Counted from the first letter of the stretch, positions 3,603 to 36,783 are shown. The stretch: 64,000 bases of DNA from an uncultured Candidatus Binatia bacterium (GCA_965242605.1 CBDESS010000004.1:96139-160138), one strand, 5' to 3'. Notes: a model not told the origin generated them from the letters alone. Translations and numbers: made by a program.

Positions 3603-3607
3603 GTGGG

Positions 3608-5668: not shown

Positions 5669-5688
5669 CTCTCCTGCCCGGGCCAGCA

Positions 5689-7109: not shown

Positions 7110-7208
7110 CTGCCTGTGCTTGTACGGAGAAACCGCCCTGGGCGCAAGCCAGCCAAGTCAATAGACTGGGCTTGGGCTGCTGTTCCCGGCCTGCTAGTCT
7201 GCGGAGAC

Positions 7209-7667: not shown

Positions 7668-7676
7668 GCCCCCTGT

Positions 7677-7823
7677 CTATTCCCGGTCGTCCTTGCGCCT
7701 TTGCCGGCGGTAAGCGGCCGGCTTCATCCGCACAGCCCCACACCGCGGACAGCGCCACTTCTCCTGCTTATGCGGCCGATGGGCCTGAACCTGCATCTTG
7801 GTACGGCAACGCGGGCAGTGCAT
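7677..7823 (-). CDS. small zinc-ribbon protein (48 aa), tentative
   Basis: MHCPRCRTKMQVQAHRPHKQEKWRCPRCGAVRMKPAAYRRQRRKDDRE: two CPRC pairs, basic tail; lies in the MlaD-CaiB intergenic region. Confidence 0.3.
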   Translation of the reverse strand: MHCPRCRTKMQVQAHRPHKQEKWRCPRCGAVRMKPAAYRRQRRKDDRE

Positions 7824-7942
7824 GGCTAATCCTGTCTGGTCTGTGTTACGTCATAGCGGGGGGTCATGCCAGAGCCGGCCCGCCGGCAGCGGGGGATTTT
7901 CAGCCACCGGACGGCCAGCTATACATGTCGTAGACAAGTCTA

Positions 7943-10419: not shown

Positions 10420-10421
10420 GC

Positions 10422-11243
10422 GTGCAGCCGGGCCGCACGACACCCATGCCAGCCCTGCCCACCATCATTGAGATTGCCAACGCGACGGTCTACCGCCAGC
10501 TCAACCGGGTTTTTGACGGGCTGTCGCTGCGCATTGCCGAAGGCTGCCATACCGCCATCCTGGGTCCCAACGGAGCCGGCAAATCGACCCTGCTGAAACT
10601 CTTGTCGTGCGAGCTGTATCCGGTCCGGCAGGCAGGCAGCACAATCCGCCTCTATGGCAAGGAACGCTGGGACGTATGGACGCTGCGCCGCCGCTTTGGT
10701 CTGGTCTCGCACGACCTCCAGCGGGAGTATCTGGGCGGGGTGCCGGGGCTGAGCGTGATCTTGTCGGGCTATTATTCCAGCAATAATATCTGGGACCATC
10801 AGGATTTCAGCCCGGCCGACATTGAGCGGGCCTATGAGTTGATGGACCAGCTCGATATCACCGCCCTCAAAGACCGGCCTTTCTCCAGCCTGTCAACCGG
10901 CGAACAACGCCGCTTTCTGCTCGGCCGAGCACTCGTCCACGACCCCGCTACGCTGGTCCTTGACGAGCCGACCAGCGGTCTCGACCTCAAGACCTGCTTC
11001 CAGTATCTCGCCACCATGCGCCGGCTGATGCACACCGGCAAGACGCTTGTGCTGGTCACCCACCATATCCACGAAATCCCGCCAGAAATATCGCGCGTGG
11101 TGTTGTTGAAACACGGCCGGGTGGTGGCCGACGGAGACAAGGCCGAGTTGTTCACCGACGCCACGCTGAGCCGCCTGTTTGACACCCCGGTCCACCTGGT
11201 CCAGGCCAAGGGCTACTATCAGGCACTTCCAGGCTCGGCCTGA
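10422..11243 (+). CDS. ABC transporter ATP-binding protein (stand-alone ATPase)
   Basis: Walker A GPNGAGKST, signature LSTGEQRR, Walker B LVLDEPTSGLD. Confidence 0.8.
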   Translation: MQPGRTTPMPALPTIIEIANATVYRQLNRVFDGLSLRIAEGCHTAILGPNGAGKSTLLKLLSCELYPVRQAGSTIRLYGKERWDVWTLRRRFGLVSHDLQREYLGGVPGLSVILSGYYSSNNIWDHQDFSPADIERAYELMDQLDITALKDRPFSSLSTGEQRRFLLGRALVHDPATLVLDEPTSGLDLKTCFQYLATMRRLMHTGKTLVLVTHHIHEIPPEISRVVLLKHGRVVADGDKAELFTDATLSRLFDTPVHLVQAKGYYQALPGSA

Positions 11244-11261
11244 CAGACACCCGTCCCAACC

Positions 11262-12911
11262 ATGACGCCGCCTGTCCGCCACGTCCCAACCCGACCCTTT
11301 TCCGACCAACGGCCCGGTACCTCGGGCCTGCGCAAAAAAACGCGGGTGTTTACCCAAGCTCACTATGTGGAAAACTTCGTCCAGGCGGTCTTCAACACCC
11401 TCCAGGACGACGCCCCACTTGACCTCAGCGATGAGAGTCTAGCCGTTGGTGGCGACGGACGCTACTACAACCGCCAAGCCATCCAGCGGATTATCCGCAT
11501 GGCAGTCGCCCACGGCTTCAGGCGCGTGTTGGTCGGCCGGGACGGCCTGCTGTCCACCCCGGCCATGTCCGCGGTCATCCGCCGCCACCATCTCTTGGGC
11601 GGGCTGATTCTGAGTGCCAGCCACAACCCGGGCGGCCCCCAGGCCGACTTTGGTATCAAGTATAATATGCGCAACGGCGGCCCCGCCCCCGAGCGCGTCA
11701 CCCAGCGGATCTACGCCCACAGCCTGCGGCTGTCTTCGTACCGGACCGTCGAGTGGCCGGACATTGACCTGGAGCGGGAAGGTCCAAACCACATCGGTCC
11801 AACCGAGGTCCGGGTTATTGACCCGCTCGCCGACTATACCGCCCTCATGCAGGCCGTGTTTGACTTCGAGGCCCTACGAGCACTCTTCCAGACCGGTTTT
11901 CGGCTGCGGTTTGATGCCATGCACGGGGCGGCCGGGCCATACGCCCGGCATATTTTTGAGGACTGCCTTGGAGCACCCCAGGCCAGCCTGCTCCGCGCCA
12001 CCCCGCTTGAAGACTTTGGCGGCATCCACCCCGACCCCAATCTGGTCCACGCCGCGGGGCTGGTATCCGAGCTGTCAGCGCCCGACGGGCCGGACTTTGG
12101 CGCGGCCTGCGACGGCGACGGTGACCGCAACCTCATCCTGGGCCGGGGCTGTTTTGTCAGCCCCGGCGATTCGGTGGCGATTCTTGCCGAACACGCAGCC
12201 GACTGCATCCCCGCCTACCGGGCCGGGCTGATCGGTGTGGCCCGCTCCATGCCGACGAGCACCGCGCTCGACCGTGTCGCCCGGGCGCTCGGCATTGCGT
12301 GCTACGAAACTCCGACCGGCTGGAAATTTTTTGGTACCCTGATGGACGCCGGGCTGTGCAGCCTGTGCGGCGAAGAGAGCTTTGGCACCGGCTCAGACCA
12401 CATCCGGGAAAAAGACGGGCTGTGGGCGGTGCTGTGCTGGCTGTCGGTCCTGGCGCAGACAGGAAAATCGGTCGGCCAGATTGTCCACGACCACTGGCAC
12501 CGCTTTGGCCGCAGTTACTACCAGCGCCACGACTTTGAAGGCCTCAACGCCGAGGCCGCGGCCGACGCACTGGCGGCACTCCGCCATACCCTGCCCAGCC
12601 TAGTCGGCCGCCGGCTGGCCGGCAGCCCTGTCCGCCTAGCCGACGACTTCAGCTACACCGACCCGGTTGACCACAGCGTAAGCCGCCACCAGGGCGTGCG
12701 CATCGGCTTGGCCGACGGCTCGCGTCTGGTGTGTCGCCTATCCGGGACCGGGACGGACACGGCCACGCTACGGGTCTACGCCGAGCGGTACACTGCCCAG
12801 CCCACAGGCGAGCCCCCCGAGACCGTACTGCGGCCGCTGGTGCAGGCCGCAGTCGCCCTGCTCGGGCTGCCCCGGCGCTGCGGGGTCAATACCGCCAGCG
12901 TGATTACCTGA
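11262..12911 (+). CDS. pgm: phosphoglucomutase (alpha-D-glucose phosphate-specific)
   Basis: TSGLRKK..., catalytic SASHNPGGP loop, 549 aa. Confidence 0.9.
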   Translation: MTPPVRHVPTRPFSDQRPGTSGLRKKTRVFTQAHYVENFVQAVFNTLQDDAPLDLSDESLAVGGDGRYYNRQAIQRIIRMAVAHGFRRVLVGRDGLLSTPAMSAVIRRHHLLGGLILSASHNPGGPQADFGIKYNMRNGGPAPERVTQRIYAHSLRLSSYRTVEWPDIDLEREGPNHIGPTEVRVIDPLADYTALMQAVFDFEALRALFQTGFRLRFDAMHGAAGPYARHIFEDCLGAPQASLLRATPLEDFGGIHPDPNLVHAAGLVSELSAPDGPDFGAACDGDGDRNLILGRGCFVSPGDSVAILAEHAADCIPAYRAGLIGVARSMPTSTALDRVARALGIACYETPTGWKFFGTLMDAGLCSLCGEESFGTGSDHIREKDGLWAVLCWLSVLAQTGKSVGQIVHDHWHRFGRSYYQRHDFEGLNAEAAADALAALRHTLPSLVGRRLAGSPVRLADDFSYTDPVDHSVSRHQGVRIGLADGSRLVCRLSGTGTDTATLRVYAERYTAQPTGEPPETVLRPLVQAAVALLGLPRRCGVNTASVIT

Positions 12912-12929
12912 GCGGCAAAGGTCTGAGCC

Positions 12930-14014
12930 ATGCGCAGGCATATGAGCATTGTGATCCTTGTGGCCATTGCAACCGTGCTGGGCCGGCCGGCGCTGGCCAA
13001 GGCCGGGCCGCCCGTCGCCCGGGGCGGGCTGACCGATGTGGCCGGGGTCAAGCTCGGCCATTACACCCTCAGTCAGCGGCCGACCGGCTGCACCGTCGTC
13101 CTGGTCAAAGACGGGGGGTCGCCGGGGTTGATGTGCGCGGCTCTGCCCCGGGCACGCGCGAGACCGACCTGTTGCGACCGGTCAGCCTGGTTGACCACGT
13201 TCACGCCATTGTGCTGGCCGGCGGCAGCGCCTTTGGCCTAGCCGCGGCAGAGGGCGTTGTTCAATACCTGGAAGAGAGCGACATCGGTTTTCTGACCCCG
13301 GCGGCAAAAATCCCGATTGTCCCGGCCGCCATTCTCCACGACCTCAACGTCGGCGACCCCCGCGTTCGCCCCAGCGCGGAATGCGGCTACCTAGCGGCCA
13401 AGGCGGCCACCAGCGGCCCGGTTGCCGAGGGCAATGTCGGGGCCGGAGCCGGGGCGACCGTCGGCAAGCTGGCCGGCCCCGGCCGGGCCATGAAATCCGG
13501 CCTGGGAACCGCCTCCATCCGCCTGCCGAGCGGCCTGACAGTGGCCGCGGTCGTGGCGGTCAACGCCCTCGGCGATATCATTGACCCCCAGACCAACCAG
13601 CTTGTGGCCGGCCTGCGCACCGAGGACGGCCGGCGGCTGGCCGACACCAGCCGCCGGCTGCGCTCCGCCGGTCCGACCAGCAGCCAGAGCGGGCAAAACA
13701 CCACCATCGGCATCATTGCCACCAACGCCCGGCTGACCAGGGTCCAGGTCACCAAAGTTGCCCAGATGGCCCACGACGGTTTTGCCCGGGCCATCAACCC
13801 GGTACACACGCCGTATGACGGCGACACGATTTTTGCCCGGGCCACCGGCACGTATCAGGAGGACAGGAGCAGCCTGGCAGGGACCCTGCATATTGGGGCC
13901 TTGGCCGCCGAGGTCATGGCCGAGGCGATTGTCCGCGCCGGGCGCGCCGCGGTCGGCATCCCCGGCTATCCCGCGACGCGCGATCTGACCCTGCCGGCCA
14001 GCCCCCAGAGCTGA
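12930..14014 (+). pseudogene. DmpA/peptidase S58 (L-aminopeptidase/D-esterase) gene with -1 frameshift in a G-run
   Basis: Frame A 12930..13241 gives signal peptide then GLTDVAGVKLGHYT...TGCTVVLVKDGG. Frame B continues GVDVRGSAPGTRETDLL...GSAFGL... to 14014. The switch lies in GGGGGG at 13113-13118. Confidence 0.7.
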
Positions 14015-14223
14015 TCCCATCCCCGGCAGCGGGCAGGATGAAGGAAACGGGCACAAGCCCCCACTGCTCTTCCACAATCCCGGTCATCCCTTAATCCTAC
14101 CAATCACAGTTCAGACACACACGGCCTGCATTGCCGAGACCGCCCTGATCCTGTAGAGGAGAGAGACCCACAGGCCGGCGGAGCAGCCCCAGGGCGACGG
14201 CCACGGCGAGGAGGACGGGACGC

Positions 14224-15453
14224 ATGATCGTCATGAATGAACATTATCTCCAGCTCCAGGCGTCGTACCTGTTTTCGGACATCGCCAAGCGGGTGGCCGC
14301 GTTTCAGGAACACCATCCAGACCGGGATGTCATCCGGCTGGGGATTGGCGACGTGACCCGCGGCCTGCCCGCGGCCTGCATTGCCGCCCTGCACGCCGCG
14401 GTGGACGAAATGGCCAAGGATGCGACGTTTCGCGGCTACGGCCCGGAGCTGGGCTACGAGTTTTTACGCCAGGCGGTTGCCGAGCACGACTTCCGGGCGC
14501 GTGGACTTGATATCTCCCCGGATGAGGTTTTTATCAGCGATGGGGCCAAGTGCGATTCGGGCAATTTTCAGGAACTGTTCGCCCCCAACACCCGCATCGC
14601 CGTACCCGACCCGGTCTATCCGGTCTATGTTGACACCAACGTCATGGCCGGCCGCTCCGCCGGCTGGCAGGACGGCCGCTACCAAGGGCTGGTGTATCTG
14701 GAATCGACCCAGGACAACAACTACATTCCTGCCCCGCCCCAGGCCAAGGTTGACGCCATCTATCTGTGCTTTCCCAACAATCCGACCGGCAGCATGGCCA
14801 CCAGGGAGCAACTCCAGCCGTGGGTAGACTATGCCAGGGACAACAAAGCCCTGATTCTGTACGACACGGCCTATGTCGAGTTTATCCGCGACGACAGCCT
14901 GCCCCAGAGCATTTATGAGCTGGAAGGGGCCAGGGAGGTGGCGGTCGAGTTTCGCAGCTTTTCAAAGACGGCCGGCTTTACCGGCACCCGCTGCGCCTAT
15001 ACCATTGTGCCCAAGCAGTGTCAGGTCTACGACTCGCAGGGCACGGCCTACGCCTTGCACGCCCTGTGGGACCGCCGCCAATCAACCAAGTTCAACGGGG
15101 TGTCGTATCCGGTCCAGCGGGCCGCGGAGGCGGTGTATTCCCCACAGGGCAGACGGCAGGTCCGGGAGCTGAGCGACTATTACATGGCCAACGCGGCCCT
15201 GATTCGCCAGACCATGAGCGGACTCGGCTACACCTGTGCTGGCGGTGAACACGCCCCGTATGTCTGGATCAAGGCGAACACAGACTCGTGGCAGTTCTTT
15301 GACCTGCTGCTGCACAAAGCCGGGGTAGTGTGTACCCCGGGCGCAGGTTTTGGCAAGTGCGGCGAGGGCTACGCCCGGCTCAGCGCGTTTAGCAGCCGCC
15401 AGAATGTCGAGACGGCCCTTGAGCGGATGAGCGCGGCCCTGAGCGGTGCCTGA
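14224..15453 (+). CDS. dapL: LL-diaminopimelate aminotransferase
   Basis: NEHYLQLQASYLFSDIAKRV...LGIGDVTRGLP...GYGPELGYEFLRQAV, the DapL-type class-I aminotransferase N-terminus; 409 aa. Confidence 0.8.
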   Translation: MIVMNEHYLQLQASYLFSDIAKRVAAFQEHHPDRDVIRLGIGDVTRGLPAACIAALHAAVDEMAKDATFRGYGPELGYEFLRQAVAEHDFRARGLDISPDEVFISDGAKCDSGNFQELFAPNTRIAVPDPVYPVYVDTNVMAGRSAGWQDGRYQGLVYLESTQDNNYIPAPPQAKVDAIYLCFPNNPTGSMATREQLQPWVDYARDNKALILYDTAYVEFIRDDSLPQSIYELEGAREVAVEFRSFSKTAGFTGTRCAYTIVPKQCQVYDSQGTAYALHALWDRRQSTKFNGVSYPVQRAAEAVYSPQGRRQVRELSDYYMANAALIRQTMSGLGYTCAGGEHAPYVWIKANTDSWQFFDLLLHKAGVVCTPGAGFGKCGEGYARLSAFSSRQNVETALERMSAALSGA

Positions 15454-15573
15454 AAAGACGCCTGGGGCGCGAAGGTGTTCAGAGACGGAACGCCAGCCGG
15501 GCGTCACGGCTGGTTGCCACACCAGAGCCCATCTCCGGGAGTCCCGTGCAGTAAGGCAGAGGAGGATAGCCAT

Positions 15574-17721
15574 ATGGCTGTGAGGTTTGAAGCGGCCCGG
15601 CGGCGGTGGGCGTGGACTCTTTTCGTTATCAGCCTTGGCCTTATCCACGCCATTGCCCAGCCAGCCCCGGCCCAGGACGCTGGGCCGCCGGCAAAGGCCG
15701 GCGAAGCCACCGCGCTTGCGCCGCTGACCGTTTCGGCCGAGCGCATCCTGCCCTTTGAGGGCGCGGGCGGCTCAGTGGTGTCGGCCCGGTTGGCACGCGA
15801 GCATCACGCCAAAGATGTGGCCGAAATCCTCAAGACCCAAGTCCCCGGGGCGGGCGGGAAACGCATCGGCGGGATGCACCTTGACCCCATCATTCGCGGG
15901 CTGCGCGAGGACCGGCTGAGCGTCATGACCAACGGCACCAAGATATGGGGTGGCGGGCCGTTTCGCATGGACCCGCCGACCTCGCTGCTGGAAATCGAGG
16001 AGATTGAAGCCATTGAGGTCATCAAGGGGCCGTACTCCGTCACCCGGGGGCCGAGCGGCATCGGTGGCACGATCAACCTGGTGACCAAGCAGCCCGAACT
16101 GGCCGCCGAGTGGTACGCCGAGGCCTCGCTCGGCGGCCTGTACGCCAGCAACTACAACGGCTTTGCCAGCCTAGCCTCGGTCAGCGCCGGTGGGCCGCAG
16201 CTCGCCTTTCGGCTGTCGGGCAGCTACCGCGATTATCAGGACTATGACTCGGGCGGCGGCGAGCGGATGCAGTCCGGGTTTCAGAGCCAAGCGGTGTCTG
16301 GCACGCTGCTGTGGCAGCCCCATGCGGCTCATCGCCTTCGGCTGTCGCTGAGCCGTGAGTCAGACCGCGACTCGCGCTTTGCTACCCTGCCCCTGCACCT
16401 GGAAGAGGACGACGCCTATCTCGGCTCGCTGACATATACCTTCACCGACCCGCTGCCCTCGGTCCACAGCCTGAGCGTCACCGGCTACTACAACTATGTG
16501 CATCACCGGATGAACAACGAGCATGAGCCCAGCCGGGTCATGTTGAGCAATACCCTGCCGCTTGACGCCCGGACCTTTGGCGGGCGGCTGGAGGCGACTC
16601 TAGGCCCGGCCTGGGGCGGCCGCCTGACGGTCGGCGGCGACGCCTATCGGCTGGAGCGCGAAGGTGTCCACCGGATCAGGTTTCGCATTGGGCCGAGCGC
16701 TGGCCGGCGGGTGTCGTTTGCGACCTGGCCCGAAACTTCGATCATGGACGGCGGCATCTTTGGCGAGTATGACTATCGGCTCGCTCCCAAGTGGCGGTGT
16801 ATTGTCGGGGGCCGGGTGGATTTTGTCAGCGCCGAAGCCGACCCGGACGCGACAACCCGGATGCGCTATGGCGGCAATAACCCTGCCGGGGCCGATACGG
16901 ATAGCATCAACAGCTTTGAGACCAATGCGAGCGCCAACGCGCGGCTGATCTATTCGCCCCTGCCGACGCTTGACCTGTTTGTCGGGCTGGGCCGGGCGGT
17001 GCGGACGGCCGATGCGACCGAACGCTACCTGGCCTTTGGCCCGGGCCCGGGCGGCTTCTATGTCGGCAACCCCGCCCTTGACCCGGAAGAGAGCCTGGAG
17101 GTTGATGTCGGCCTGAACGCCGGCTGGGGCCGGCTGGCGATTGATGGCTCGTTTTTCTACAACCGCGTGGACAACTACATCCTGGCGTATGTCATCGATC
17201 CAGAGCAGGCCAACCCGGTCCGTATGTTCCTGCCGATGGCTCCCGACACAACGATCCTGCGCGGCTTTCGCAATATCAACCGGGCTGAACTGCTCGGCGG
17301 AGACCTCGGCCTGAGCTATGCCCTGCGGGAGGACCTGAGCTTGGTCGGCACCTTTGCCTATGTGCGTGGAGAGAACGGACAGGACAACACCGCCCTCCCC
17401 GAGATTCCACCCCTGGAGGGCCGGCTGGGCTTCCGCTATGAGCACCCCGACTGGGGCGTGTGGCTGAACCCGACGGTCTGGCTGGCCCAGAGCCAACACC
17501 GCATTGACACGGCGTTTGGCGAGGATGTCACGCCCGGCTTTGTGACCGTGGACCTCAACGCCGGCTGGCGCTTTCTCGGGCGCTACGAGCTGATTATTGC
17601 CGTCGATAACCTGCTCAACAACAACTATCACGAGCATACGACCCGGGAGAATCCGTTTAGCGGACAGGAGGTGTTTGAGGCCGGCCGGGTGGTGACGGTC
17701 GGTATCAGAGCCAGCTTTTGA
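15574..17721 (+). CDS. TonB-dependent outer-membrane receptor
   Basis: RBS AGGAGGA then ATG at 15574; signal peptide, plug domain ([30 protein letters not shown]), beta-barrel ending in terminal Phe. Confidence 0.85.
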
Positions 17722-17762
17722 GCCGGCTTGACTCTTCTGCCCACACCGCTGACACTTCGCTC

Positions 17763-18539
17763 ATGTTGTGCAAACGCCTTATTCCGTGCCTCGATGTCAA
17801 AGCCGGCCGGGTAGTCAAAGGGGTCAATTTTGTCAATCTGCGTGACGCCGGCGACCCGGTCGAGGTCGCCCAGCGCTATGATGACGAGGGGGCCGACGAG
17901 CTGACTTTTCTGGATATTACGGCCTCCCACGAACGGCGCAAAATCCTGCTTGATGTAGTCCGACGCACCGCGGAAACGGTCTTTATGCCGCTGACCGTCG
18001 GCGGCGGGGTACGAGAGATTGGAGATATCCGCAATCTGCTGAATGCCGGGGCCGACAAGGTATCAATCAACACCGCCGCGGTAGACCGCCCGGAGTTCGT
18101 CAAGGAGGCCGCCGAGCGCTTTGGCGCGCAGTGTACAGTGGTCGCGATTGACGCCAAGCGGGCGGCTCCGGGCCGGCGGGCGGGGGGCTGGGAGGTGTAC
18201 GTCCACGGCGGGCGGACGCCGACCGGGATTGATGCCGTTGAGTGGGCAGAGCGCATGGAAGCCTGTGGCGCGGGCGAAATCCTGCTGACCAGCATGGACC
18301 GGGACGGCACCCGGGCCGGCTATGATATCGACCTGACCCGGGCGATTGCCGACGCGGTAAGCGTGCCGGTGATCGCCTCGGGCGGGGTGGGCAGTCTGGA
18401 GCATATCCATGCCGGGCTGACCCGCGGGCGGGCGGATGCGGCCCTGGCCGCGTCAATTTTTCACTACCAGGAATACACGATTCGGGACTGCAAGGCGTTC
18501 TTGGCCAAGCGGGGCGTCAGGGTGCGGCAAACGTATTGA
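17763..18539 (+). CDS. hisF: imidazole glycerol phosphate synthase cyclase subunit
   Basis: [36 protein letters not shown]... canonical HisF. Confidence 0.9.
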
Positions 18540-18619
18540 AAACCGCCTGTGCAATAGGCTATGCCGGCCAGGACGCGATCGATACAGACTGCGGGACAAG
18601 CCACATGAAGGAGGGACGT

Positions 18620-19486
18620 ATGGCCAAAGTCATGATCGAGGCTGCCATTAACGGCAACGCCATGAGGGCTCTCAACCCCCACATTCCGTATAGCCCGGAG
18701 GAAATCGCCAACGACGCAATCGCCACCTGTCGGGCCGGCGCGGCGCTGATCCATTTTCATGTCCGCAACCCCGACACCGGGGCGTGGGTGCAAGACCTGC
18801 CGTACTACTCCGAGGTCTACACACGCACCCGCGAGCAGTGCAAGCCGCTGCTGTGGCCGACCTTTCCGTTTGGCGATGATCCGGTCCGGCGGTTTCAGCA
18901 CTTTTTTGAGCTGGCCAAAGACCCAAGTACCAAACCCGACCTGGGGGCCGGTGATATGGGCTCGGTCAACCTAGTGTCGTATGACCTGGCCACCAAGACC
19001 CTGGGCGAGGGGAGTTTTGTCTACCAGAACTCCTACGACACCATCAAACACTTCCTGGAGGGCTCCAATGCACTTGGCCTGCGTCCGACCCTCCAGATTT
19101 TCGACGCCAGTTTTTTGCGCGCCGCCCTGGTCTTCCTGGACAAAGGCGTACTGACCGAGCCGCTGTTGCTGAAGTTCTATTTTGGCGGGCCGGCCCTGCC
19201 GTTTGGCCTACCCCCGACCTTGAAGAGCCTTGAAGCCTATCTGGACATGCTCACCGGCGTGCGCTGTCACTGGTTTGCGGCCACCCTCGGCGACGACAAC
19301 TTGCCCTTTGTGCCGCAGATCGTCAGCATGGGCGGCCATGTGCGGGTTGGCCTAGAGGACTACCAGTACGCCACAGAAGGCCAGCTCAGCAATGCCGAAA
19401 TTGTGGGCCGGGCGGTGGGGATGATTACGGGCATGGGCCACGAGGTGGCGACGCCGGAGGAGACGCGGGTCATACTGGAGACCTGA
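18620..19486 (+). CDS. BKACE family enzyme (3-keto-5-aminohexanoate cleavage enzyme-like, DUF849)
   Basis: RBS GGAGGG then ATG 18620; MAKVMIEAAINGN...HFHVRNPDTG...GGHVRVGLED motifs typical of the beta-keto acid cleavage enzyme (BKACE) family. Confidence 0.75.
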   Translation: MAKVMIEAAINGNAMRALNPHIPYSPEEIANDAIATCRAGAALIHFHVRNPDTGAWVQDLPYYSEVYTRTREQCKPLLWPTFPFGDDPVRRFQHFFELAKDPSTKPDLGAGDMGSVNLVSYDLATKTLGEGSFVYQNSYDTIKHFLEGSNALGLRPTLQIFDASFLRAALVFLDKGVLTEPLLLKFYFGGPALPFGLPPTLKSLEAYLDMLTGVRCHWFAATLGDDNLPFVPQIVSMGGHVRVGLEDYQYATEGQLSNAEIVGRAVGMITGMGHEVATPEETRVILET

Positions 19487-19565
19487 CAAGGTACAGCTCA
19501 CAGGAAGCCTATCTGACTAGTGGACTACAGACCGCAGGCCCATAGTCCGTTGAACGGAGCATACG

Positions 19566-20828
19566 GTGTTGGCAGAGAAAGAAGAGCGGAGCGGGGTGGA
19601 TGAGTGGCCCAAGATGCGGTTCAGTGACGCGGTTCTGATCAGTCCGCTGGTCCGTCTCGAACGCGGAAGACCCTACCCATTTGTCAATATGGCCGCCGTG
19701 AACGCAGGTTCCCGGTGTGCATACGCGCTTGAGCGACATGCCTATTCAGGCGGCGGGACACGCTTTCGGAGTGGCGACACACTCATGGCGTGGCTCACGC
19801 CTTGCCTGGAGAATGGCAAGATCGCCCGCTACTGCGCGCCTCATTCATCGGACACCGCGCACGGCTCAACGGAGTTCATCGTCATTCGAGGCCGCCCTAA
19901 CGTTACGGACACCGGGTTCGCCTATTACCTGACGCAATGGGAAGAGGTGCGTAATTACGCTATTGGCCAGATGACCGGCACCTCTGGACGCCAGAGAGTC
20001 CAGACGAAATCCCTGGACCATCTTACGGTCACAATCCCGCCCCCCCCCGAGCAGCGCGCCATTGCCCACCTCCTGGGCACGCTCGACGACAAGATTGACC
20101 TCAACCGCCGCATCAACGCCACCCTGGAAGCAATGGCTCGGGGGCTGTTCATCTCCTGGTTCGTCCACTTTGACCCCGTCCATGCCAAAGCCAGCCTGAA
20201 ACAACGCACGTCTCAAGGGGCGGGTGCTTGGCCGGTGGCACGGGCACGGGCCTATCTAGACCGGCTGGAGCCGGAGATTGCCGCCTTATTCCCGGATCGT
20301 TTTGTGGACTCGGAGTTGGGGCCGATTCCCGCCGGGTGGGCGGTCAAGCCGCTTGGCGATCTCATCGAACTCGCTTACGACAAAGCACTCAAGGCGGACA
20401 CCATTGTAGGTCGCAAGGGGAATCCCGGAACAGTCCCCTGGGCTGCCAGTGCGTACTTTCCCATTGACACGACATTTTATGTTGTTCCCAAGGATTCGGG
20501 AACGCCAAGCCTGCCCTTTCTGTTCTACGCCTTGCAAGGGCAAGGGCTGCCGGCCGTTGCTGCGGACTCGGCGGTGCCTGGCCTGAACCGAAACTTGGCC
20601 TCCCTCAACCAACAGGTGACGCCCCCGGCCCCTCTTGTTGCCCACTTTGGCGCACAGGTAGAGCGCTTCTTTGCACGCCGGCATGGCTTGGAGGAGGAGA
20701 GCTGCACCCTCGCCGCCCTCCGCGATACCTTTCTGCCCAAGCTGGTCTCGGGTAAGCTGCGGATACACTCAGGGTCAAGCGTGGAAAAAATCATGCCCGC
20801 GTTGTCAGACAATGGGAAAGTCGGATGA
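19566..20828 (+). CDS. hsdS: Type I restriction-modification specificity subunit HsdS (orphan, apparently intact)
   Basis: Two target-recognition halves with conserved spacer EQRAIAHLLGTLDDKIDLNRRINATLEAMARGLF and C-terminal ...LPKLVSGKLRI; 420 aa. No adjacent hsdM or hsdR. Confidence 0.8.
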   Translation: MLAEKEERSGVDEWPKMRFSDAVLISPLVRLERGRPYPFVNMAAVNAGSRCAYALERHAYSGGGTRFRSGDTLMAWLTPCLENGKIARYCAPHSSDTAHGSTEFIVIRGRPNVTDTGFAYYLTQWEEVRNYAIGQMTGTSGRQRVQTKSLDHLTVTIPPPPEQRAIAHLLGTLDDKIDLNRRINATLEAMARGLFISWFVHFDPVHAKASLKQRTSQGAGAWPVARARAYLDRLEPEIAALFPDRFVDSELGPIPAGWAVKPLGDLIELAYDKALKADTIVGRKGNPGTVPWAASAYFPIDTTFYVVPKDSGTPSLPFLFYALQGQGLPAVAADSAVPGLNRNLASLNQQVTPPAPLVAHFGAQVERFFARRHGLEEESCTLAALRDTFLPKLVSGKLRIHSGSSVEKIMPALSDNGKVG

Positions 20829-20843
20829 CGAAGAGGAGTAGCT

Positions 20844-22455
20844 ATGAGCATTGATATCGTTCAAGGCACTAGCAGTAAACCTGTGTCCACCGACGCGTTG
20901 GTTAAACTCATGTCGAGTCAGACCGATATAGATGGACAGATGTTCACCGGATACCCGATCATCAGCACAGCGGAAGGGCCTCATCTAATTGACGCTCTCC
21001 TCGTATCCCCTGACAAGGGAATTCTCGTGTTCGATCTCATTGAAGGACCCGATATCGGTGATTACGGATCGAGGCAGGATGATGCGGCCAACAAGCTTGA
21101 AGCTCGACTTAGACCCCATCGTGAACTAATGCGGGGCCGGAATCTCCGTATCCCGATTCATACGGTTTCGTTTGCGCCAGGCACGAGCGAGTTGCCCCAA
21201 GACGGTAGTAGTAGGCATCAAATCGCGAATCGCAGAGATACTCTCATACAAGTACTGGAACGTTTCGAGTGGGAGAATGGAAAGAGAAGTGTTTACAAGG
21301 CTGCTCTGTCTGCACTTGAGAGCATTTCGACGATTCGTAAGACCAAGACAAAACGGACGATCCAGCAAGAAGACTCTAGAGGTGCCAAGCTAAAAAACTT
21401 GGAAGATTCGATTGCCACGCTGGATGCCGAGCAACTGAAGGCGGTTGTCGAAACAGTCGAAGGAGTACAACGCATTCGTGGTCTGGCAGGCTCGGGCAAG
21501 ACCATTGTCTTGGCGCTTAAGGCTGCCTACCTTCATGCTCAACACCCCGAGTGGCGTATGGCCGTCACCTTCAACACACGCTCGCTCAAGGGACAGTTCC
21601 GACGTTTAATCAACAACTTCTCCCTTGAACAGACAGGCCAAGATCCCAATTGGGAGAACCTGCGCATTGTCAACGCCTGGGGGGCTCCAGGTGGCAGCAA
21701 ACGCGATGGCGTTTACTACGAGTTTTGTCGTGTGCACGATATAGAATACTGCGACTTCCAGTCAGCCAGAAGAAAATTTCCACCAGGAAAAGAGTTCTCC
21801 GGAGCCTGTGAACTTGCAGTCAGTCAGGCGCAGGAAGTGAAGCCAGTCTATGATGCGCTCTTAGTAGACGAGGCACAAGATTTTTCACCCGCCTTCCTCC
21901 AACTTTGCTACGCATTGCTAGACAATCACAAAAGATTAGTCTACGCATACGACGAGCTGCAAAATCTTTCTGAAGAATCCCTTCCTTCACCAAATGCCTG
22001 ACGGGGCGTTGATTCATGTGTTTTGACTATGACGGTCGGGACAGCCACCACCGGGAATTAGTACATCCTAAGTCTCACTTAACGCTCGGCCAATACGCGA
22101 ACTGCCGAATCTCCGGTAACGGCCCCAATGACGCCTTTCTGGTTTATCGACTTCATTCTCAGGAACTTCTACTGCACTGCGCATGCTGCCGAGTTTCCTG
22201 CACAGCAGGGTATGTTTATCGAGTCGATACTTCCAACCGAGCGAGGCGTGATTCATGTGGTTGTCCCATATGAGTAGCATGGCTAGTCTGAATGACTCCA
22301 CCGCTACCTTAGCGTTTCCGGGGAGCCTCGCCGGATGTATCGCCCACGGGCTGGGTATCGTCCCCGACACGCTGCTTCCCAAGCTTATTTTCGGAGGTCT
22401 AAGGAAGAGCCCAGATAGAAACGCAGGCCTCATACTTTTGACCTTCACCATTTGA
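20844..22455 (+). pseudogene. nuclease-helicase (NERD/PD-(D/E)xK-like N-domain + DUF2075/SF1 helicase core, Nhi-like), truncated and frameshifted
   Basis: First 385 aa intact (20844..22001): N-terminal IDALLVSPDKGILVFDLIEG nuclease-like motif, Walker A GLAGSGKT, ALLVDEAQDF. ORF stops at 22001 and continues in shifted frames (22016..22273, 22255..22455). Region visibly lower GC than flanks. Confidence 0.55.
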
Positions 22456-22464
22456 TTTCTCCCA

Positions 22465-23043
22465 GTGAACAAGACTGCTCTCATCACCCAAATCCACGCT
22501 ACCCCGCTCATGACAGTCCTGGCCGTCACCGGCGGCGGCGGCCAAGCCGTCGCCGACCTCCTGGCCGTGCCAGGCGCTTCGCGCACAGTCTTGGAAGCCG
22601 TCATCCCCTACAGTCAGGCCGCCCAAAGCGCCTTCCTAGGCGAAACGGTTGATCAGTCGGTTACGGCCGAGGCCGCAGCAGCCCTCGCCCGAGTCGCCTA
22701 TCATCGGGCACTCCGGCTCCGGACGGATGAAACGGTGCCGCTTATCGGTCTAGCCTGCACCGCAGCTCTGGCAACCAACCGGCCAAAGAAGGGCGAGCAT
22801 CGGGCCCATATCGGGGTGTGTGATGCGGAAAGCTCTCGGGTCTGTTCCCTCACCCTGTGCAAGGGCAGCCGCGACCGGAGCGGCGAAGAACAGCTTGTGA
22901 CCGCGCTGTTGCTCTCCACGCTAGCCGAGGCGTGTGGTCTTGAGACTAGACTGGAACTCGGACTGCTGCCCCAGGAGCACCTCGTCATTCAGGATTTTTC
23001 TTTCATCCCGCCAAAAATCGCAAAATTCAGAAACTTCCAATAG
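22465..23043 (+). CDS. CinA C-terminal domain-like protein (divergent)
   Basis: VLAVTGGGGQAVADLLAVPGASRTVLEAVIPYSQAAQSAFLGETV aligns by eye with the CinA-C/PncC ESCTGG...VPGSS...GGVVAYSNeAK core, but ESCTGG is replaced. Confidence 0.4.
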   Translation: MNKTALITQIHATPLMTVLAVTGGGGQAVADLLAVPGASRTVLEAVIPYSQAAQSAFLGETVDQSVTAEAAAALARVAYHRALRLRTDETVPLIGLACTAALATNRPKKGEHRAHIGVCDAESSRVCSLTLCKGSRDRSGEEQLVTALLLSTLAEACGLETRLELGLLPQEHLVIQDFSFIPPKIAKFRNFQ

Positions 23044-23726
23044 CAGTCCACCATCCTGAAGCCGGCGTCTCGCCACCAGTCCAACTGCAGTTCGAGCGCC
23101 GCGATGTGGCTGCTCTGGCCCTTGGGCCGTTGCATGACTGTGCGCGCCTCGCGTATCTCCTCCAGGGAGTGTTCCGCGCCGTGTTCGCGCAGGTGGTGCT
23201 GAATCACCCGGTCGGCCAGCGGGGTAAAATGCTCGCGCATTTCCGGTGCGCCGCTTACCACATCGTTGTTGAGGAACATACCGCCGGGCAGCAGCAGCGC
23301 GTAGACCTCTGCACACAAGGCCCGTTTGCGCTGGTCGGTCAGATGGTGCAGGGCAATCGCCGAGACCACGGCATGAAAAGGTCCCGGCAGCTCCGTCAAC
23401 CAGGCGGGGTCGGCCAGGTCTCTGATCAACATCCTGACCTGCTGACCGTACTTGGCCAAGCGTGGCTCGGCGTGCTCCTGCATGGCCGGAGAGCCGTCCA
23501 GCCAGACAACACTGGCCCGCGGATAGCGGCTCAGAATGGTCTCCGTCACCGCCCCATAGCCAGCCCCTAGGTCCAACACCCGAATGGGCTGCTCGGTCGG
23601 CCAGGGGAAAAAATCAACCAAGCTGCTCAGCTGTTCATAACGCTTGGGAATCAAGAGGGCACCGCGTGTCACAAAATAATCAACTCTGCCCCGCTCTCCC
23701 CAGCCGCACAGGGTATCGCGTGCCAT
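22989..23726 (-). CDS. class I SAM-dependent methyltransferase
   Basis: Motif I VLDLGAGYGAVTE, post-I acidic WLDGSPAM; 245 aa. Confidence 0.8.
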   Translation of the reverse strand: MARDTLCGWGERGRVDYFVTRGALLIPKRYEQLSSLVDFFPWPTEQPIRVLDLGAGYGAVTETILSRYPRASVVWLDGSPAMQEHAEPRLAKYGQQVRMLIRDLADPAWLTELPGPFHAVVSAIALHHLTDQRKRALCAEVYALLLPGGMFLNNDVVSGAPEMREHFTPLADRVIQHHLREHGAEHSLEEIREARTVMQRPKGQSSHIAALELQLDWWRDAGFRMVDCYWKFLNFAIFGGMKEKS

Positions 23727-27521: not shown

Positions 27522-28331
27522 GTGCCACAAGCTGACACACCCTGGACAAGGCCGAGGCGGCAGAGTAAAGAAGAGGGTGTTTCGGTGACACTATGGAGAC
27601 AGTGCTTTCAGGATTGCGGTCCGCCTTCTGGGGTGCGTGTGGTTGACGCCCTCAGCCGCCTGCTGCCGTGCGAAGGCGTCGGGCTTATTCTGCTCAACCG
27701 CCGCAGCGAACAGGCTGAGCGGATTGCGGTCGGCGGCGGCTTTGCAGTCCCGGCCTCCACGGCTCTGGCCGCCGGCCAAGCCGAGGGCGGCCTGCTGCGC
27801 CAGGTCTGCGACCGGGAGCCGCTGGTGTTGGACACACAAACCTCATCCCAGCCCAAGGCCCTGGGCGACCTCGCCGAGCACAGCTTGCTCATCACGCCGG
27901 TCATGCAGCCAGAGTATCCGCAGCCCTTGGGCTGCCTCCTCGTCGCCGACCACGCCGAGGGGTTCTCTGCCGAGACGGTCGGCCTGCTGACCGCGGTGGC
28001 CCGGCGCACCGCCCTGGCCATTGAAAATGCCCAGCTGTACGATGCGCTTGAAAAAGAGCCCCGGCAGCTGCGGGGGTCTGCTGCATACGGTCATCATCAC
28101 CCAGGAAAAAGAGCGCAAACATCTGGTTGAACAGTGGCACGCTCCCTCAGCAAGAAACTGTTTGGCATCCTCCAGGACTTTCGGCGCAGCCAAGACCTGT
28201 TTCTCCAGCGGGTGCCCGAGGCCGAGGGGCAGATCCACCGCCTGGCAGCCGAAATAGACGGGATAGCGGCCCTTGTGCGCAGCCTGATCGACGAGCTGCG
28301 GCCCGCCAGCCTGGACAATGCAATGATATGA
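27522..28331 (+). pseudogene. GAF-domain sensor histidine kinase, 5' part (GAF + HisKA_3 dimerisation region; frameshifted and interrupted)
   Basis: GAF domain in frame 0 to about 28070; the HisKA_3 H-box region is split over two frames (28021.. and 28134..); reading ends ...LRPASLDN then a premature stop at the insertion edge. Confidence 0.7.
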
Positions 28332-28419
28332 CTTGTTCCAAGTAGAAACGCGGGTCGTTCCAGCGTTCGTCGTCAAGATTTTCAATATCCGGCGGGAAAG
28401 GTTTTTAGGATGGGAGCAT

Positions 28420-28827
28420 TCATACGAATTCTTCGTCGTCCAAACCACTTGGTGAGGCGTTTGCTGGAGAGCGTTGTGTTTCGGTGAAAACGCTGAGGGT
28501 CTTGAAGATTTCACGGATTTGCTTCTGTGCATTATTTCGCGTGGATAATGTGGAAGCATTTCCTACGCGTGCGTCCAACCCTTGGTGGTGTATATGGAAA
28601 CGGCAATGGAGTAAGATGTGATACTGATCTGCGAGTTGGCGGAGAAGGGTCAGGCGTGGGTCTTTCTTCTCAAGGATGCCTGCATCCCTCATCGCATTGC
28701 GAAACCAGCAGTAAATCGTCGTGGGTTTGTATTTCTCAAGGATTGCTGGATGGAAATCGCTGTCTTCAAGTTCTTGCTCAAATGGAAACTCAGCAAAGAC
28801 TTGATGAGCCTTTTTCCATGTCGTCAA
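28420..28827 (-). CDS. hypothetical protein (inside insertion)
   Basis: 135-aa ORF, last of four co-directional ORFs in the AT-rich insert. Confidence 0.2.
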   Translation of the reverse strand: MTTWKKAHQVFAEFPFEQELEDSDFHPAILEKYKPTTIYCWFRNAMRDAGILEKKDPRLTLLRQLADQYHILLHCRFHIHHQGLDARVGNASTLSTRNNAQKQIREIFKTLSVFTETQRSPANASPSGLDDEEFV

Positions 28828-28879
28828 TTTCTGTGATTTTCAATCCAGAAATGTTGGATGCTTTTCGCGCAATCGGCAT

Positions 28880-29170
28880 TTAGGTACTCCGTTGAAGGTC
28901 GCCGTACATCTCATTCCAATTCTGTGTAGGAGCAGTCCACTGGATACGTTCCTGGTCTGTGATTTCAGATTTGGCCACGGAGTTCCAAGTGGGAGTAAAG
29001 CCCATGCGTTCAAGGCAAATGAATTGTCGTACAGTTTCTGCTATGAAGATTGCCATGTTCTGTTTCAAGTTGTTATATGACACAGACAACGCACGAATTT
29101 TGCAGACACGCGCTCCACAGTATGCAATCACATCGGCAGTTCGTTGGGCTTCTGTGTCAATGTTCCACAT
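28880..29170 (-). CDS. hypothetical protein (inside insertion)
   Basis: 96-aa ORF co-directional with 29191..29742; may be a frameshifted continuation of the same gene. Confidence 0.2.
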   Translation of the reverse strand: MWNIDTEAQRTADVIAYCGARVCKIRALSVSYNNLKQNMAIFIAETVRQFICLERMGFTPTWNSVAKSEITDQERIQWTAPTQNWNEMYGDLQRST

Positions 29171-29190
29171 GGCCGCCTTGTTCGCTCTAG

Positions 29191-29742
29191 TTATTCCGTA
29201 TGGAAAAGCTTCATACCTTGAGATGCTTCATCCCAAATGAAGTGAGCAGTTTCTCCAGAACTTGGAAAGTCGGTGATTTGACACCGCGCATGTGGTGGAG
29301 TGTTAGTCAAGAAGTCTTCACCAAAGATCGTGACCCTAAAGCTCCAGCGAGAAACCAAAGTTTGTCCGTCGACAATGAGCGACACCCTATGTTCTCCGTC
29401 GCCAAGGAGATTCCAGTTCCAGAGCGCAAGAAATCCGGTATTACGATTTCCGCATGTAGTTTCGGTATCTGCACGCGACAATCCGGTTGCTTGGATAGGA
29501 ATTTCGGTTTGTGTTTCTTCAAGAAGAAGAGCAATGCGGTCGTACTGCGAAATGTCGCAAATCCATCCGCGAATGTTTCCGATGCCACTTTGGTACGAGC
29601 CTTCGCCGGGTTCTTCAAGAATTCCACGAAGAGGGGCTGATGGAGGATCTTCAGGGTCAGGGTTTTGTGGTGTTGGTGTTGGGGAGGAAATAAACGGGTT
29701 CGGTCGGTGTGGACGAATACCAAAGTTCGGAGCACGACACAT
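29191..29742 (-). CDS. hypothetical protein (inside insertion)
   Basis: 183-aa ORF, same strand as neighbouring insertion ORFs; Pro-rich N-terminal region; no recognised domain. Confidence 0.25.
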   Translation of the reverse strand: MCRAPNFGIRPHRPNPFISSPTPTPQNPDPEDPPSAPLRGILEEPGEGSYQSGIGNIRGWICDISQYDRIALLLEETQTEIPIQATGLSRADTETTCGNRNTGFLALWNWNLLGDGEHRVSLIVDGQTLVSRWSFRVTIFGEDFLTNTPPHARCQITDFPSSGETAHFIWDEASQGMKLFHTE

Positions 29743-29906
29743 GGCAGATATGAGGAGAGCCAGGGATTCTTCCGCTTCGTAGATCAGGCGGCGAGTCAGT
29801 GCATCCTTCCGAATTCCCAGCGATGTAAGGAGCTTTCCGCATGACCCAACTCATAATATGGTCTGTTGCCGTTTTCTACCCATTGCCCTCGATGTCGTCC
29901 TTCGTG

Positions 29907-30323
29907 TCAGTTTTGGAGAGCTCTTGCAAATCCTGGATGGTGGTGTTGTAGTTTACGGAGGCAGACTTGTCGTCCGGCCTCAACTTCGCTATGGGTATGA
30001 TTTGGATACCCCAATGTGGACAATGCAGTATTCCACCAGAGTTGATCGCCGACTTGGAGGTAATGTTCCCAGGCGATAGTGGAGTTTCTTTCGTTTGGAT
30101 TGAGATGTAATCCAGGGTCGGAAAGCCATCCATGATGCTCGTCATCCAAAGGGGCATTTGCTGGACAGTTTCCGTTGTCGTCAGGAAGGATATTCCTGTT
30201 GCTTCCGCCGTTAGTACATAAAGTATGGCTGTTCGCAAGAGCAGGGAGGAGGGCGAGCATGAGGAGAATGGCTACGAGCATGGTGATCAACAGGATAAGT
30301 TCACGGGATTTGAGCGTGGACAT
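29907..30323 (-). CDS. hypothetical membrane-anchored/secreted protein with prepilin-like hydrophobic N-terminus (inside insertion)
   Basis: MSTLKSRELILLITMLVAILLMLALLPALANS... resembles the N-termini of prepilin-type/DUF1559 proteins; no canonical G-F-T-L-I-E cleavage motif. Confidence 0.3.
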   Translation of the reverse strand: MSTLKSRELILLITMLVAILLMLALLPALANSHTLCTNGGSNRNILPDDNGNCPANAPLDDEHHGWLSDPGLHLNPNERNSTIAWEHYLQVGDQLWWNTALSTLGYPNHTHSEVEAGRQVCLRKLQHHHPGFARALQN

Positions 30324-30554
30324 AATAGTTTTCCTTTCGATTCGTGGGCTTCTGTAAACCGCCGCCCCTCAGGACGGGTCACAATGAAAACGCTCCGAAG
30401 AACGGGGGACACCAGGAGGTTGCATGGTGTTAGGCTGGTTCCTGACAATATTTCACCACACTGTATACGCAGTTGGCAAGGAGATAGTAGCATAAAAGTG
30501 GGGTCGTGGATGGGTTTCTAGAAAGAAAATCAAGAATAAACCCCTACGAAGTCT

Positions 30555-30996
30555 GTGGGTCGTCCTCAGGTCCGAGACAATTTCGGCTTTGTAGCTGCGC
30601 TGCAAGAGTATGCGGACAAGCTGAGCCAGCGGGGCCTGTTTCGGGTCACTGTTCAGGCCGACGACTCGATCTTGCCCCTGCCGTCCGCGGCCACCCTGAC
30701 CCTGTTCCGGGTGACGCAAGAAGCGCTCGATAGCCTCGACAAGCACGCCCATGCTCAACACGTTGAGATCGCCGTCGTCCAGGAACACAACGGGGTGTCG
30801 CTGCGCATCAAAGACGACGGTCAAGGTACCTACCTCGATCAGCGTTCACACGGTCAGTACAGCCTGCTCTATATGCGGCGAGCGGGTCAAAGCGTGTGGA
30901 GGCACCTTGCAGGTCTCAGGCGCGCGTGGGCACGACAAGAGGTCCGGGTCAGCGTGCCGATTGCCTGACCGCGAGCCCCCGAAGGAGTGCGTATGA
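30555..30996 (+). pseudogene. sensor histidine kinase, 3' part (HATPase_c domain; frameshifted)
   Basis: DNFGFVAALQEYADKL...TLFRVTQEALDSLDKHAHAQHVEIAVVQ...LRIKDDGQG in one frame; the G2-box-like ...GGTLQVSGARG is in a +1 frame (30751..30996). Confidence 0.65.
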
Positions 30997-35100: not shown

Positions 35101-35302
35101 TCGGCAGGCAGCTCCGGGTTGAGACGGGTCAGGGCATCGCGCAGACGCCTTTCCAGCACGACTTGGCCATAGTCCACGCGCTCTGCGGCCGGCGTATCGG
35201 CGCAATGTCCGGCCCATGGGCTACGCCCCAGCCCTGGCCGGCCAGCCAGTCAAGGGCGGCGGCTTCAACGGTGGATTCGGTCACTCTGGGCATGGATGAC
35301 AT
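32147..35302 (-). pseudogene. hsdR: Type I restriction enzyme R subunit HsdR, multiply frameshifted
   Basis: N-term [20 protein letters not shown]... (ATG 35302); helicase motifs ...[29 protein letters not shown]; DUF3387 C-terminus 32147..32518. Spread over at least 5 ORF fragments in different frames (35177-34755, 34549-34217, 34293-32515, 32518-32147); 1-bp deletion visible at 32518. Confidence 0.8.
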
Positions 35303-35351
35303 GATGGGGTGAGCGGGGCGAAGGCGGCAGCTTCAACATCGGTGCAGACGC

Positions 35352-36779
<1,428 letters not shown>

Positions 36780-36783
<4 letters not shown>

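Follow-up and report, generated by a model that had tools for sequence, protein, structure and literature searches.

A probable wreck of a type I restriction-modification operon carrying a helicase–DUF2290 pair in an uncultured Candidatus Binatia bacterium

Four gene fragments between BKACE and cinA

We analysed a 64,000-nucleotide stretch of DNA from an uncultured Candidatus Binatia bacterium (GCA_965242605.1 CBDESS010000004.1:96139-160138), here called the window, with positions counted from its first letter. Between a BKACE gene and a cinA-like gene, the window carries a lineage-specific insert of ~2.9 kb (~19509-22401) with the wrecks of four genes on the same strand: hsdS, a helicase gene, a DUF2290 gene and hsdR. 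These are very probably what is left of a type I restriction-modification (R-M) operon. The original prediction for this locus, made from the sequence alone, had described an orphan hsdS next to a degraded Nhi/DUF2075-like nuclease-helicase, together forming a defence-island remnant. It was right about the defence-island remnant.

The hsdS remnant is an open reading frame (ORF) of 420 aa (19566-20828, + strand), which matches the Pfam family Methylase_S (PF01420) with 45.8 bits and the PADLOC model Specificity_I with 228 bits, so that its identification as HsdS held. We aligned it with its ten best homologues, and the conserved central and C-terminal coiled-coil regions of HsdS align well with these proteins. 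The four nearest homologues, 73-75% identical over aligned columns, are ~595 aa long and have an N-terminal nucleotidyltransferase (NTase) domain of ~107 aa. The window HsdS lacks this domain and starts exactly in the linker that follows it (VLAEKEER versus VVLVEKEER). Homology to the hsdS genes of the related loci L008 and L009 starts at 19556 (residue ~106 of the encoded proteins); five codons ahead of the ORF there is an in-frame stop (19551-19553), and the distance from the ORF to the BKACE gene is only 79 bp. At its left end the insert is cut within hsdS, at the NTase/HsdS linker. In the second target-recognition domain (TRD2), an in-frame deletion of 28 codons (84 bp) at ~20399 has removed the 28 residues between KADT and IVGRKG (RxxGxVPVYGSNGxVGWHDxxLVQGPGI), which hardly vary among the ten homologues, and the protein does not have two complete target-recognition domains. 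In a leave-one-out comparison, the window HsdS deviated at 28 of the 174 columns at which the other ten sequences agree (14 substitutions and 14 deleted positions), against 0-7 for every other sequence. The original prediction had called this hsdS apparently intact and had named truncation on closer alignment as the finding that would speak against it; the absence of the NTase domain and of 28 TRD2 residues is such a truncation. For annotation, this is a caution that an orphan hsdS ORF may look intact and yet contain an in-frame deletion, which shows up only when close homologues are aligned.

Next to hsdS lies the 5' ~55% of a helicase gene of the Helicase+DUF2290 system (20844-22001, + strand), identified by PADLOC, tblastn, blastn and structure, and encoding a PD-(D/E)xK-like N-domain, Walker A and motif II. 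Its ORF of 385 aa contains RGLAGSGKT and LLVDEAQDF and matches the PADLOC-DB 'Helicase' model PDLC03002 (E 5.3e-160, 532 bits) over model positions 2-379 of 707; Pfam assigns the same ORF to the UvrD-helicase N-terminal/AAA families. A protein search returned more than 1000 homologues, in which the only Pfam domains were PF00580, PF13538 and PF13401. Complete homologues measure 639-674 aa, or ~710-720 aa in metagenomic loci, and none has a natural terminus near residue 385; an exact-protein look-up of the window helicase found none on record. With full-length homologues as tblastn queries, helicase residues 1 to ~383-392 map to 20838-21992/22016. Homology stops at 21992, domains 1B/2A/2B are deleted and motifs III-VI are absent, and tblastn with five full-length helicases and the C-terminal piece from locus L026 detected no trace nearby of the C-terminal ~330 residues (nothing after 22016). 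The guanine-cytosine (GC) content is 0.507 in the helicase ORF and 0.514 in the next 260 bp, whereas the window as a whole has 0.622, the flanking genes 0.61-0.62 and the hsdS ORF 0.608, in agreement with the low GC noted for the helicase gene originally.

Structure modelling predicts, with high confidence, that the N-terminal domain of the helicase has a PD-(D/E)xK fold. The closest structural matches of the modelled domain are the Can2, Schlafen (SLFN11, SLFN12), NucS and Upx nuclease domains, with further matches to Card1, McrC, Shedu and many restriction enzymes. When solved structures were searched by sequence with the family profile, PcrA was the one protein retrieved, matched in its Walker A region. 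Residues G8, K12, G31, G36, P38, D50, G59, Q78, D79, L89 and R99 are invariant in the family and E67 is nearly so; no canonical (D/E)xK lysine is evident after E67. The fragment keeps all of the invariant N-domain residues and the Walker A/B motifs. The proposed architecture of a NERD/PD-(D/E)xK-like N-domain followed by a superfamily 1 (SF1) helicase core thus survives at the level of the predicted fold, without a Pfam NERD match. From this predicted nuclease fold follows a concrete hypothesis about which part of the Helicase+DUF2290 system may act as effector or sensor.

The proposed kinship to Nhi and to DUF2075 helicases was not borne out. The PADLOC Nhi model PDLC02372 reached 16.8 bits (E 5e-4) on residues 333-378 (motif II) only, against 532 bits for the Helicase+DUF2290 model, and Pfam gave no DUF2075 or NERD match at E<=0.01. 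GajB scored at most 18.5 bits, on short ATPase motifs only (PADLOC). A housekeeping UvrD, PcrA or RecD was rejected as well, as the NCBIfam pcrA model TIGR01073 gave 16 bits against a cut-off of 911 and Helicase IV 25 against 543.

In the closest DNA relative of the fragment, L026, the helicase and DUF2290 genes allow the break to be located. By blastn, window 20943-21992 corresponds to L026 8620-9669 and window 22017-22171 to L026 11087-11240; the intervening L026 9670-11086 (1417 bp) is missing and is replaced in the window by a scar of 24 bp (21993-22016). This deletion of ~1.4 kb fuses helicase codon ~383 to DUF2290 codon ~135, and may have been compound, as suggested by 25 nt that match a stretch inside DUF2290 in loci L001 and L002. 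The DUF2290 remnant comprises the last ~85 codons of the gene (22017-22277, + strand; Pfam PF10053, 29.2 bits against a cut-off of 25; tblastn E 4e-29), and two PADLOC DUF2290 models scored 47.2 and 32 bits on the ORF 22016-22273. DUF2290 residues ~137-171 map to 22022-22126 and residues ~167-221 to 22113-22268 in the next frame (tblastn), placing a frameshift near 22113-22126. The remnant still ends at the natural C-terminus, with the stop at 22275-22277, and residues 1 to ~134, the N-terminal ~60% of the length, are absent. The helicase had been predicted to end at 385 aa, as it does, and to continue in two shifted frames to about 22455; no such continuation was found, and because tblastn maps 22017-22277 to DUF2290, the supposed continuation is the DUF2290 tail and not helicase.

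Pairing of the two genes is the rule elsewhere. We fetched 80 metagenomic helicase loci, 68 of which had at least 700 bp downstream of the helicase; a DUF2290 gene followed in 66 of these 68, starting 12-72 bp on in 65 of the 66. A DUF2290 gene of ~220 aa followed the helicase in every context examined (L001-L003, L004-L007, L026, L027 and E. coli), and an annotated E. coli example consists of a 'DEAD/DEAH box helicase' and a 'DUF2290 domain-containing protein'.

One base past the DUF2290 stop, an ATG opens the decayed 5' stub of a second hsdR gene, of ~34 codons (22279-22375, + strand). The stub reads MASLNDST---ATLAFPGSLAGCIAHGLGIVPDT, and HsdR proteins of this type I family have N-termini that align with it. 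In a shuffle test, 0 of 2000 shuffled sequences reached the observed score for 7 of the 12 HsdR N-termini tried, all seven being matches (P0242-P0342) of the HsdR protein search; results were weaker for the other five, among them the resident stub (2 of 2000), L025 (5), L009 (76) and P0266 (126). The frame of 22279-22375 is the one matched by 112 of 120 HsdR N-termini, and when such N-termini were compared with the whole window by tblastn the stub (E 0.002-0.005) was second only to the resident hsdR gene described below, the next match having E>=0.57. The ORF at 22255-22455, whose frame holds the stub, had no family match in Pfam, PADLOC or NCBIfam.

The insertion site and the resident type I operon

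Relatives of the locus were gathered by scanning the genome collection with the BKACE protein, which yielded 15 loci. BKACE directly abuts the cinA-like gene in 13 of them, from Candidatus Binatia relatives. Comparison with relatives had been proposed originally as a way to find an intact version; it established this junction, and no intact version of the exact operon was found. L010-L013 run on past the cinA-like gene through methyltransferase, metallophosphoesterase, aldo-keto reductase, SixA-like and MoaC genes, among others, to a luciferase-like monooxygenase (LLM) gene, and more distant Binatia relatives keep this gene run only partly. On the left, the flanking BKACE gene (18536-19486, + strand; Pfam BKACE, 216 bits) is a core gene outside the island, 85-95% identical and syntenic in Binatia relatives. 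The right flank is formed by the cinA-C-like gene (22465-23043, + strand; 192 aa; Pfam CinA, 24.9 bits, just above the cut-off), syntenic in 13 relatives, followed by a convergent gene for a class I S-adenosylmethionine (SAM) methyltransferase of 245 aa (22989-23726; ORF list and Pfam). Both were present as predicted; because they are syntenic across relatives they are core genes, and their membership of the island is ruled out. A PADLOC 'mad2' match of the methyltransferase is a generic match to the methyltransferase fold. PncC-type CinA domains carry an ESCTGG motif, at the position of which the window protein has AVTGGGG; since the gene is syntenic across Binatia (58-83% identity), this variant is typical of the lineage and not a sign of decay.

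By blastn, window 19491-22465 is without counterpart in L025. Ancestral intergenic sequence, shared with relatives, extends to ~19508, and on either side of the insert collinearity with relatives is preserved up to a few bases. Between the ancestral sequence and the truncated hsdS lies a junction filler (19509-19565) with no homology to relatives or to hsdS homologues. The right boundary is marked by the tail of a small intergenic element (22402-22464), 77-78% identical to sequence that precedes cinA in L012 and L013. In L012 this element forms an insert of ~290 bp between BKACE and cinA (10889-11180) that codes for a four-helix-bundle protein resembling those of 23S rRNA intervening sequences (IVS) and is bordered by AAAGTCAAAGGGCAAA-type repeats; its counterpart in L013 lies at ~11485-11900, and the window keeps the last ~63 bp only. 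A segment of 536 bp (22466-23001), comprising most of the cinA-like gene, is inverted with respect to both flanks in L010, L013 and L025 and has the same orientation as the window in L011, L012 and L014-L021. This gene-sized inversion polymorphism sits exactly at the right edge of the insert, and only a weak inverted repeat of 37 nt (70% complementary) was found within or near the segment. The BKACE–cinA site is evidently unstable, with the small element in L012 and L013 and the inversion in L010, L013 and L025, and looks like an insertion hot spot. A promoter and terminator scan gave site counts no higher than in shuffled sequence.

A further set of genes of the same type I family, which we call the resident operon, lies on the minus strand at 32.1-36.8 kb, 11-15 kb from the insert. 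The hsdM and hsdR genes said to lie 11 kb from hsdS are thus present, and both are pseudogenes. The resident hsdR (32150-35293) is broken into five pieces in three frames, with at least four frameshifts and an internal stop; tblastn with the HsdR proteins of L008, L009 and L025 recovered residues 1-1046 (35293-32150), including its own N-terminus (residues 1-32). The region upstream of hsdR (35294-35551, - strand; blastn to L025) ends at the junction of a 4.3 kb deletion (35550/35551, with a 2-bp overlap), beyond which the resident hsdM (35550-36783, - strand; tblastn and blastn) retains residues 1-417 of 546, with one frameshift and four in-frame stops; with L008, L009 and L025 queries, the tblastn match runs from 36783 to 35541 in two frames.

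L010, the closest relative, and L025 (from a metagenome) share ~90% nucleotide identity with the window and are syntenic here. Between a 4HBT thioesterase gene and LLM they have an intact operon: hsdM (546 aa), an NTase_sub_bind/HepT-like gene (140 aa), NTase::hsdS (583 aa), two unassigned ORFs and hsdR (1076 aa, a single intact ORF in both). By blastn, L025 1-5480 corresponds to window 40941-35550, 5481-9804 is absent and 9805-14549 corresponds to 35551-30734; beyond this, 14767-19406 corresponds to 27644-23001, 19431-19966 to 22466-23001 inverted, and 19980-23231 to 19490-16239. The clean 4.3 kb deletion of the resident operon therefore took the 3' part of hsdM, the HEPN-like gene, hsdS and the cargo. 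The L025 cargo (8188-9685) consists of two overlapping ORFs of 259 aa (+) and 281 aa (-), the calls of which may be spurious or represent uncharacterised cargo; neither had a confident Pfam or PADLOC family, and the 281-aa ORF (unk281) gave weak sub-threshold matches only. In tblastn with L025 proteins, 14 of 15 flanking core genes align uninterrupted and free of stops, MoaC alone splitting, and then only in its last ~20 residues. Because the flanking core genes align whole, the damage to the R-M genes is specific and not general sequencing noise. Intact hsdM, hsdS and hsdR are found together neither at the insert nor at the resident locus.

Origin and present state of the insert

Taken together, these results make it very probable that ~19509-22401 is the non-functional, deletion-eroded wreck of a type I R-M operon that carried a helicase–DUF2290 pair and had inserted at the BKACE–cinA site. 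Its ancestral form would have been (hsdM – HEPN-like partner –) NTase::hsdS – helicase – DUF2290 – hsdR. Because the fragment has its own hsdR start and the distant hsdR keeps its N-terminus, the most likely source of the "orphan" hsdS is a second operon belonging to the same family, which we favour over relocation from the resident operon. We envisage that this second operon entered the space between BKACE and cinA, normally a very short one, and was then trimmed by deletions, from both ends and internally. As known for type I systems, the intact operon would have methylated DNA through HsdM2S and restricted it through R2M2S, containing HsdR, and the NTase::HsdS fusion with its HEPN-like neighbour would have constituted a module of the MNT/HEPN type. 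From the literature and the predicted fold, the cargo pair may have added a second anti-phage layer, in which the nuclease-fold/SF1-helicase protein would act with DUF2290. The resident operon would independently have lost the 3' part of hsdM, the HEPN-like gene, hsdS and its cargo, and have gained frameshifts and stops. In its present form the locus is non-functional, with an HsdS without the TRD2 core, no intact HsdM in the window, a helicase without its second RecA domain (2A) and a DUF2290 protein without 60% of its length.

The original prediction suggested that hsdS had been captured or relocated, and simple relocation was the explanation that we initially favoured. The insert would then have been cut out of the middle of the resident operon, carried 13 kb away and inverted (for example by two nested inversions that use the recombination-prone BKACE–cinA site), and its hsdS would be the displaced partner of the distant hsdM and hsdR. 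The two sets of pieces are indeed complementary, since the resident operon is without exactly the 3' part of hsdM, the HEPN-like gene, hsdS and the cargo, and the fragment has hsdS and cargo; both belong to one type I family with the same NTase::HsdS linker, and the inverted cinA segment of some relatives means that inversions happen at the site. However, the fragment has its own hsdR 5' stub, and with residues 1-32 kept by the resident hsdR there are two hsdR starts. In addition, the resident deletion is clean, with a 2-bp overlap, when compared with an L025-like operon that has a different cargo of two unrelated ORFs, and the conserved hsdS segments are 80-85% identical to L025 hsdS, as against 90-91% for hsdM and hsdR. 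Relocation would also need at least three breakpoints, and there are no junction repeats. Because of the stub, the simple form of the resident deletion and the lower identity of hsdS we downgraded relocation, which we now consider unlikely, and hsdS was probably not captured from the distant genes.

Both ORFs are open, the helicase N-domain invariants and Walker A/B are kept, and a nuclease fold followed by an SF1 core resembles the domain order of Nhi; on these grounds the 420-aa HsdS could be a functional orphan subunit serving an HsdM elsewhere, and the 385-aa protein a functional Nhi-like nuclease-ATPase. The loss of 28 TRD2 residues, together with 14 further substitutions at invariant columns, makes this very improbable for HsdS, as do for the helicase a family length of 639-720 aa with no member ending near 385, almost constant pairing with DUF2290, an Nhi score of 16.8 against 532 bits, the absence of motifs III-VI and 2A, and an adjacent DUF2290 gene that is frameshifted and truncated. 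It is just as hard to credit that metagenome assembly created the insert and the frameshifts artificially, through a chimeric join or consensus errors. The source is a contig of a metagenome-assembled genome and does contain homopolymer runs, such as the C10 at 20040-20049, but two precise chimeric joins would be required, with flanks collinear to within a few bases. Moreover, only the R-M genes are broken across several frames, and most in-frame stops likewise fall within them, while 14 of 15 core genes are whole, and deletions of 84 bp, ~1.4 kb and 4.3 kb are unlike polishing errors.

Several observations weigh against a second operon that is now a wreck. The hsdR stub is short (~34 codons), shows 40-50% identity and needs a 3-residue gap, and a hidden Markov model profile of the HsdR N-terminus gave it only 2.9 bits (E 0.034 in a search of 5 kb in six frames), although it was still the top match there. 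The nearest helicase homologue is 70% identical and does not adjoin hsdS, and the ancestral layout is reconstructed and not observed, because no intact copy of the exact operon was found. No integrase, insertion sequence (IS) element, tRNA or flanking repeat that would account for the entry of the DNA was found at the insert or its junctions. At highly conserved columns of the helicase the fragment deviates at 2 of 91, within the range of its homologues (n=85; median 1, maximum 5); decay was by deletion and not by point mutation, and the truncated ATPase may still be expressed. Our view covers 64 kb of the genome, and an intact, compatible hsdM could lie elsewhere.

With these points set against it, the remnant of a second operon remains the explanation that we prefer. 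The locus is an ordinary decayed defence locus of known kinds and not a new system. Within Binatia, a phylum that has received little study, it is a textbook illustration of how defence genes decay by deletion. Two points are mildly novel: the helicase has an N-domain with a predicted nuclease fold, and the pair is repeatedly embedded between hsdS and hsdR, as discussed below.

Other features of the window lie apart from the insert. At ~27645-30733, a low-GC (0.53) patch of 3.1 kb stands in place of 217 bp of L025. It parts a GAF domain (27522-28130) from a kinase (30555-30968) that form a single ORF of 576 aa in L011, and is a second lineage-specific insertion, disrupting a sensor kinase; the ORFs of the patch had no Pfam or PADLOC match. 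Two adjacent ORFs of 343 and 686 aa (2571-5668), downstream of EF-G and tRNA-Leu, likewise had no Pfam (E<=1e-4) or PADLOC match, and 41746-42768 gave one generic 'oxidoreductase' candidate match and no confident family.

The helicase–DUF2290 pair and related defence systems

At least 6 of the 80 metagenomic loci (L048, L051, L053, L070, L100 and L101) have type I genes beside the helicase–DUF2290 pair and on its strand, with hsdM/hsdS before it, hsdR after it, or both. An hsdR gene starts ~50 bp after DUF2290 in L100 and L101 and ~240 bp after it in L053. As the probes were the proteins of one family, these counts are lower bounds. The HsdM proteins of the six loci are only 22-40% identical to HsdM of the window family, and the hsdS–helicase–DUF2290–hsdR layout therefore recurs across unrelated type I systems. 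Most copies of the pair stand alone or in other defence or mobile contexts. In M. marinum (L004-L007) the pair is next to a prokaryotic Argonaute gene (pAgo; Piwi), directly so in L004-L006, and DUF4365 is present in a neighbouring gene in L005 and L006. In L027 (10001-16543), three IS transposase genes (IS1595, DDE_Tnp_1) interrupt a copy of 66% identity, which is an independent example of decay of the system.

The nearest homologues of the window HsdS sit in hsdM–HEPN–NTase::hsdS–cargo–hsdR operons. Between hsdS and hsdR, L008, L009 and L025 hold DUF6978, DUF1828/1829, AAA_14/DUF4143 and two unassigned ORFs; because relatives have other genes at this position, the window HsdS family carries variable cargo there. 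By analogy with PrrC and EcoprrI, it is conceivable, though we regard it as doubtful, that helicase–DUF2290, as a passenger that recurs precisely between hsdS and hsdR in unrelated type I operons, is functionally coupled to the R-M complex. If so, the pair would serve as a back-up effector, firing once the type I enzyme has been disabled by anti-restriction proteins of a phage; after loss of the R-M genes it would be dispensable and decay along with the enzyme. The recurrent embedding in type I operons makes R-M coupling a testable idea.

Rousset et al. (2022, PMC9122126) reported that phage T7 is inhibited by a helicase + DUF2290 pair, the mechanism of which later reviews list as unexplored (PMC10952713). 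The window helicase and the remnant downstream of it match the profiles of this system (Rst_Helicase+DUF2290), and their order and tight spacing are those of the E. coli, M. marinum and metagenomic examples. A full-length pair has a helicase of ~640-720 aa that includes UvrD_C_2 and a DUF2290 protein of ~220 aa, whereas both window genes are truncated and DUF2290 is frameshifted. The window copy, moreover, is inside a type I R-M operon and not in a P4-satellite or prophage hotspot, and no activity is expected of it. Nhi and the DUF2075/NERD helicases appear to share its domain order, with a predicted PD-(D/E)xK-fold N-domain followed by an SF1 core. They show no family-level similarity to it, and the system of the window family consists of two genes, DUF2290 being the obligatory partner of the helicase.

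With MNT/HEPN modules, the connection is through the relatives. The nearest HsdS homologues and the L025 operon have an NTase domain on HsdS and an NTase_sub_bind/HepT-like gene before it; the window hsdS keeps the linker that follows the NTase domain, and both the domain and the partner gene are deleted in the two window copies. A further parallel is the prr locus, in which the anticodon nuclease PrrC is embedded in the type I system EcoprrI. The window likewise has hsdS, cargo and hsdR on one strand, with the cargo a few bases past the hsdS stop and hsdR one base past the cargo; it differs in that its cargo is helicase–DUF2290 and not PrrC, and in that its operon is wholly decayed.

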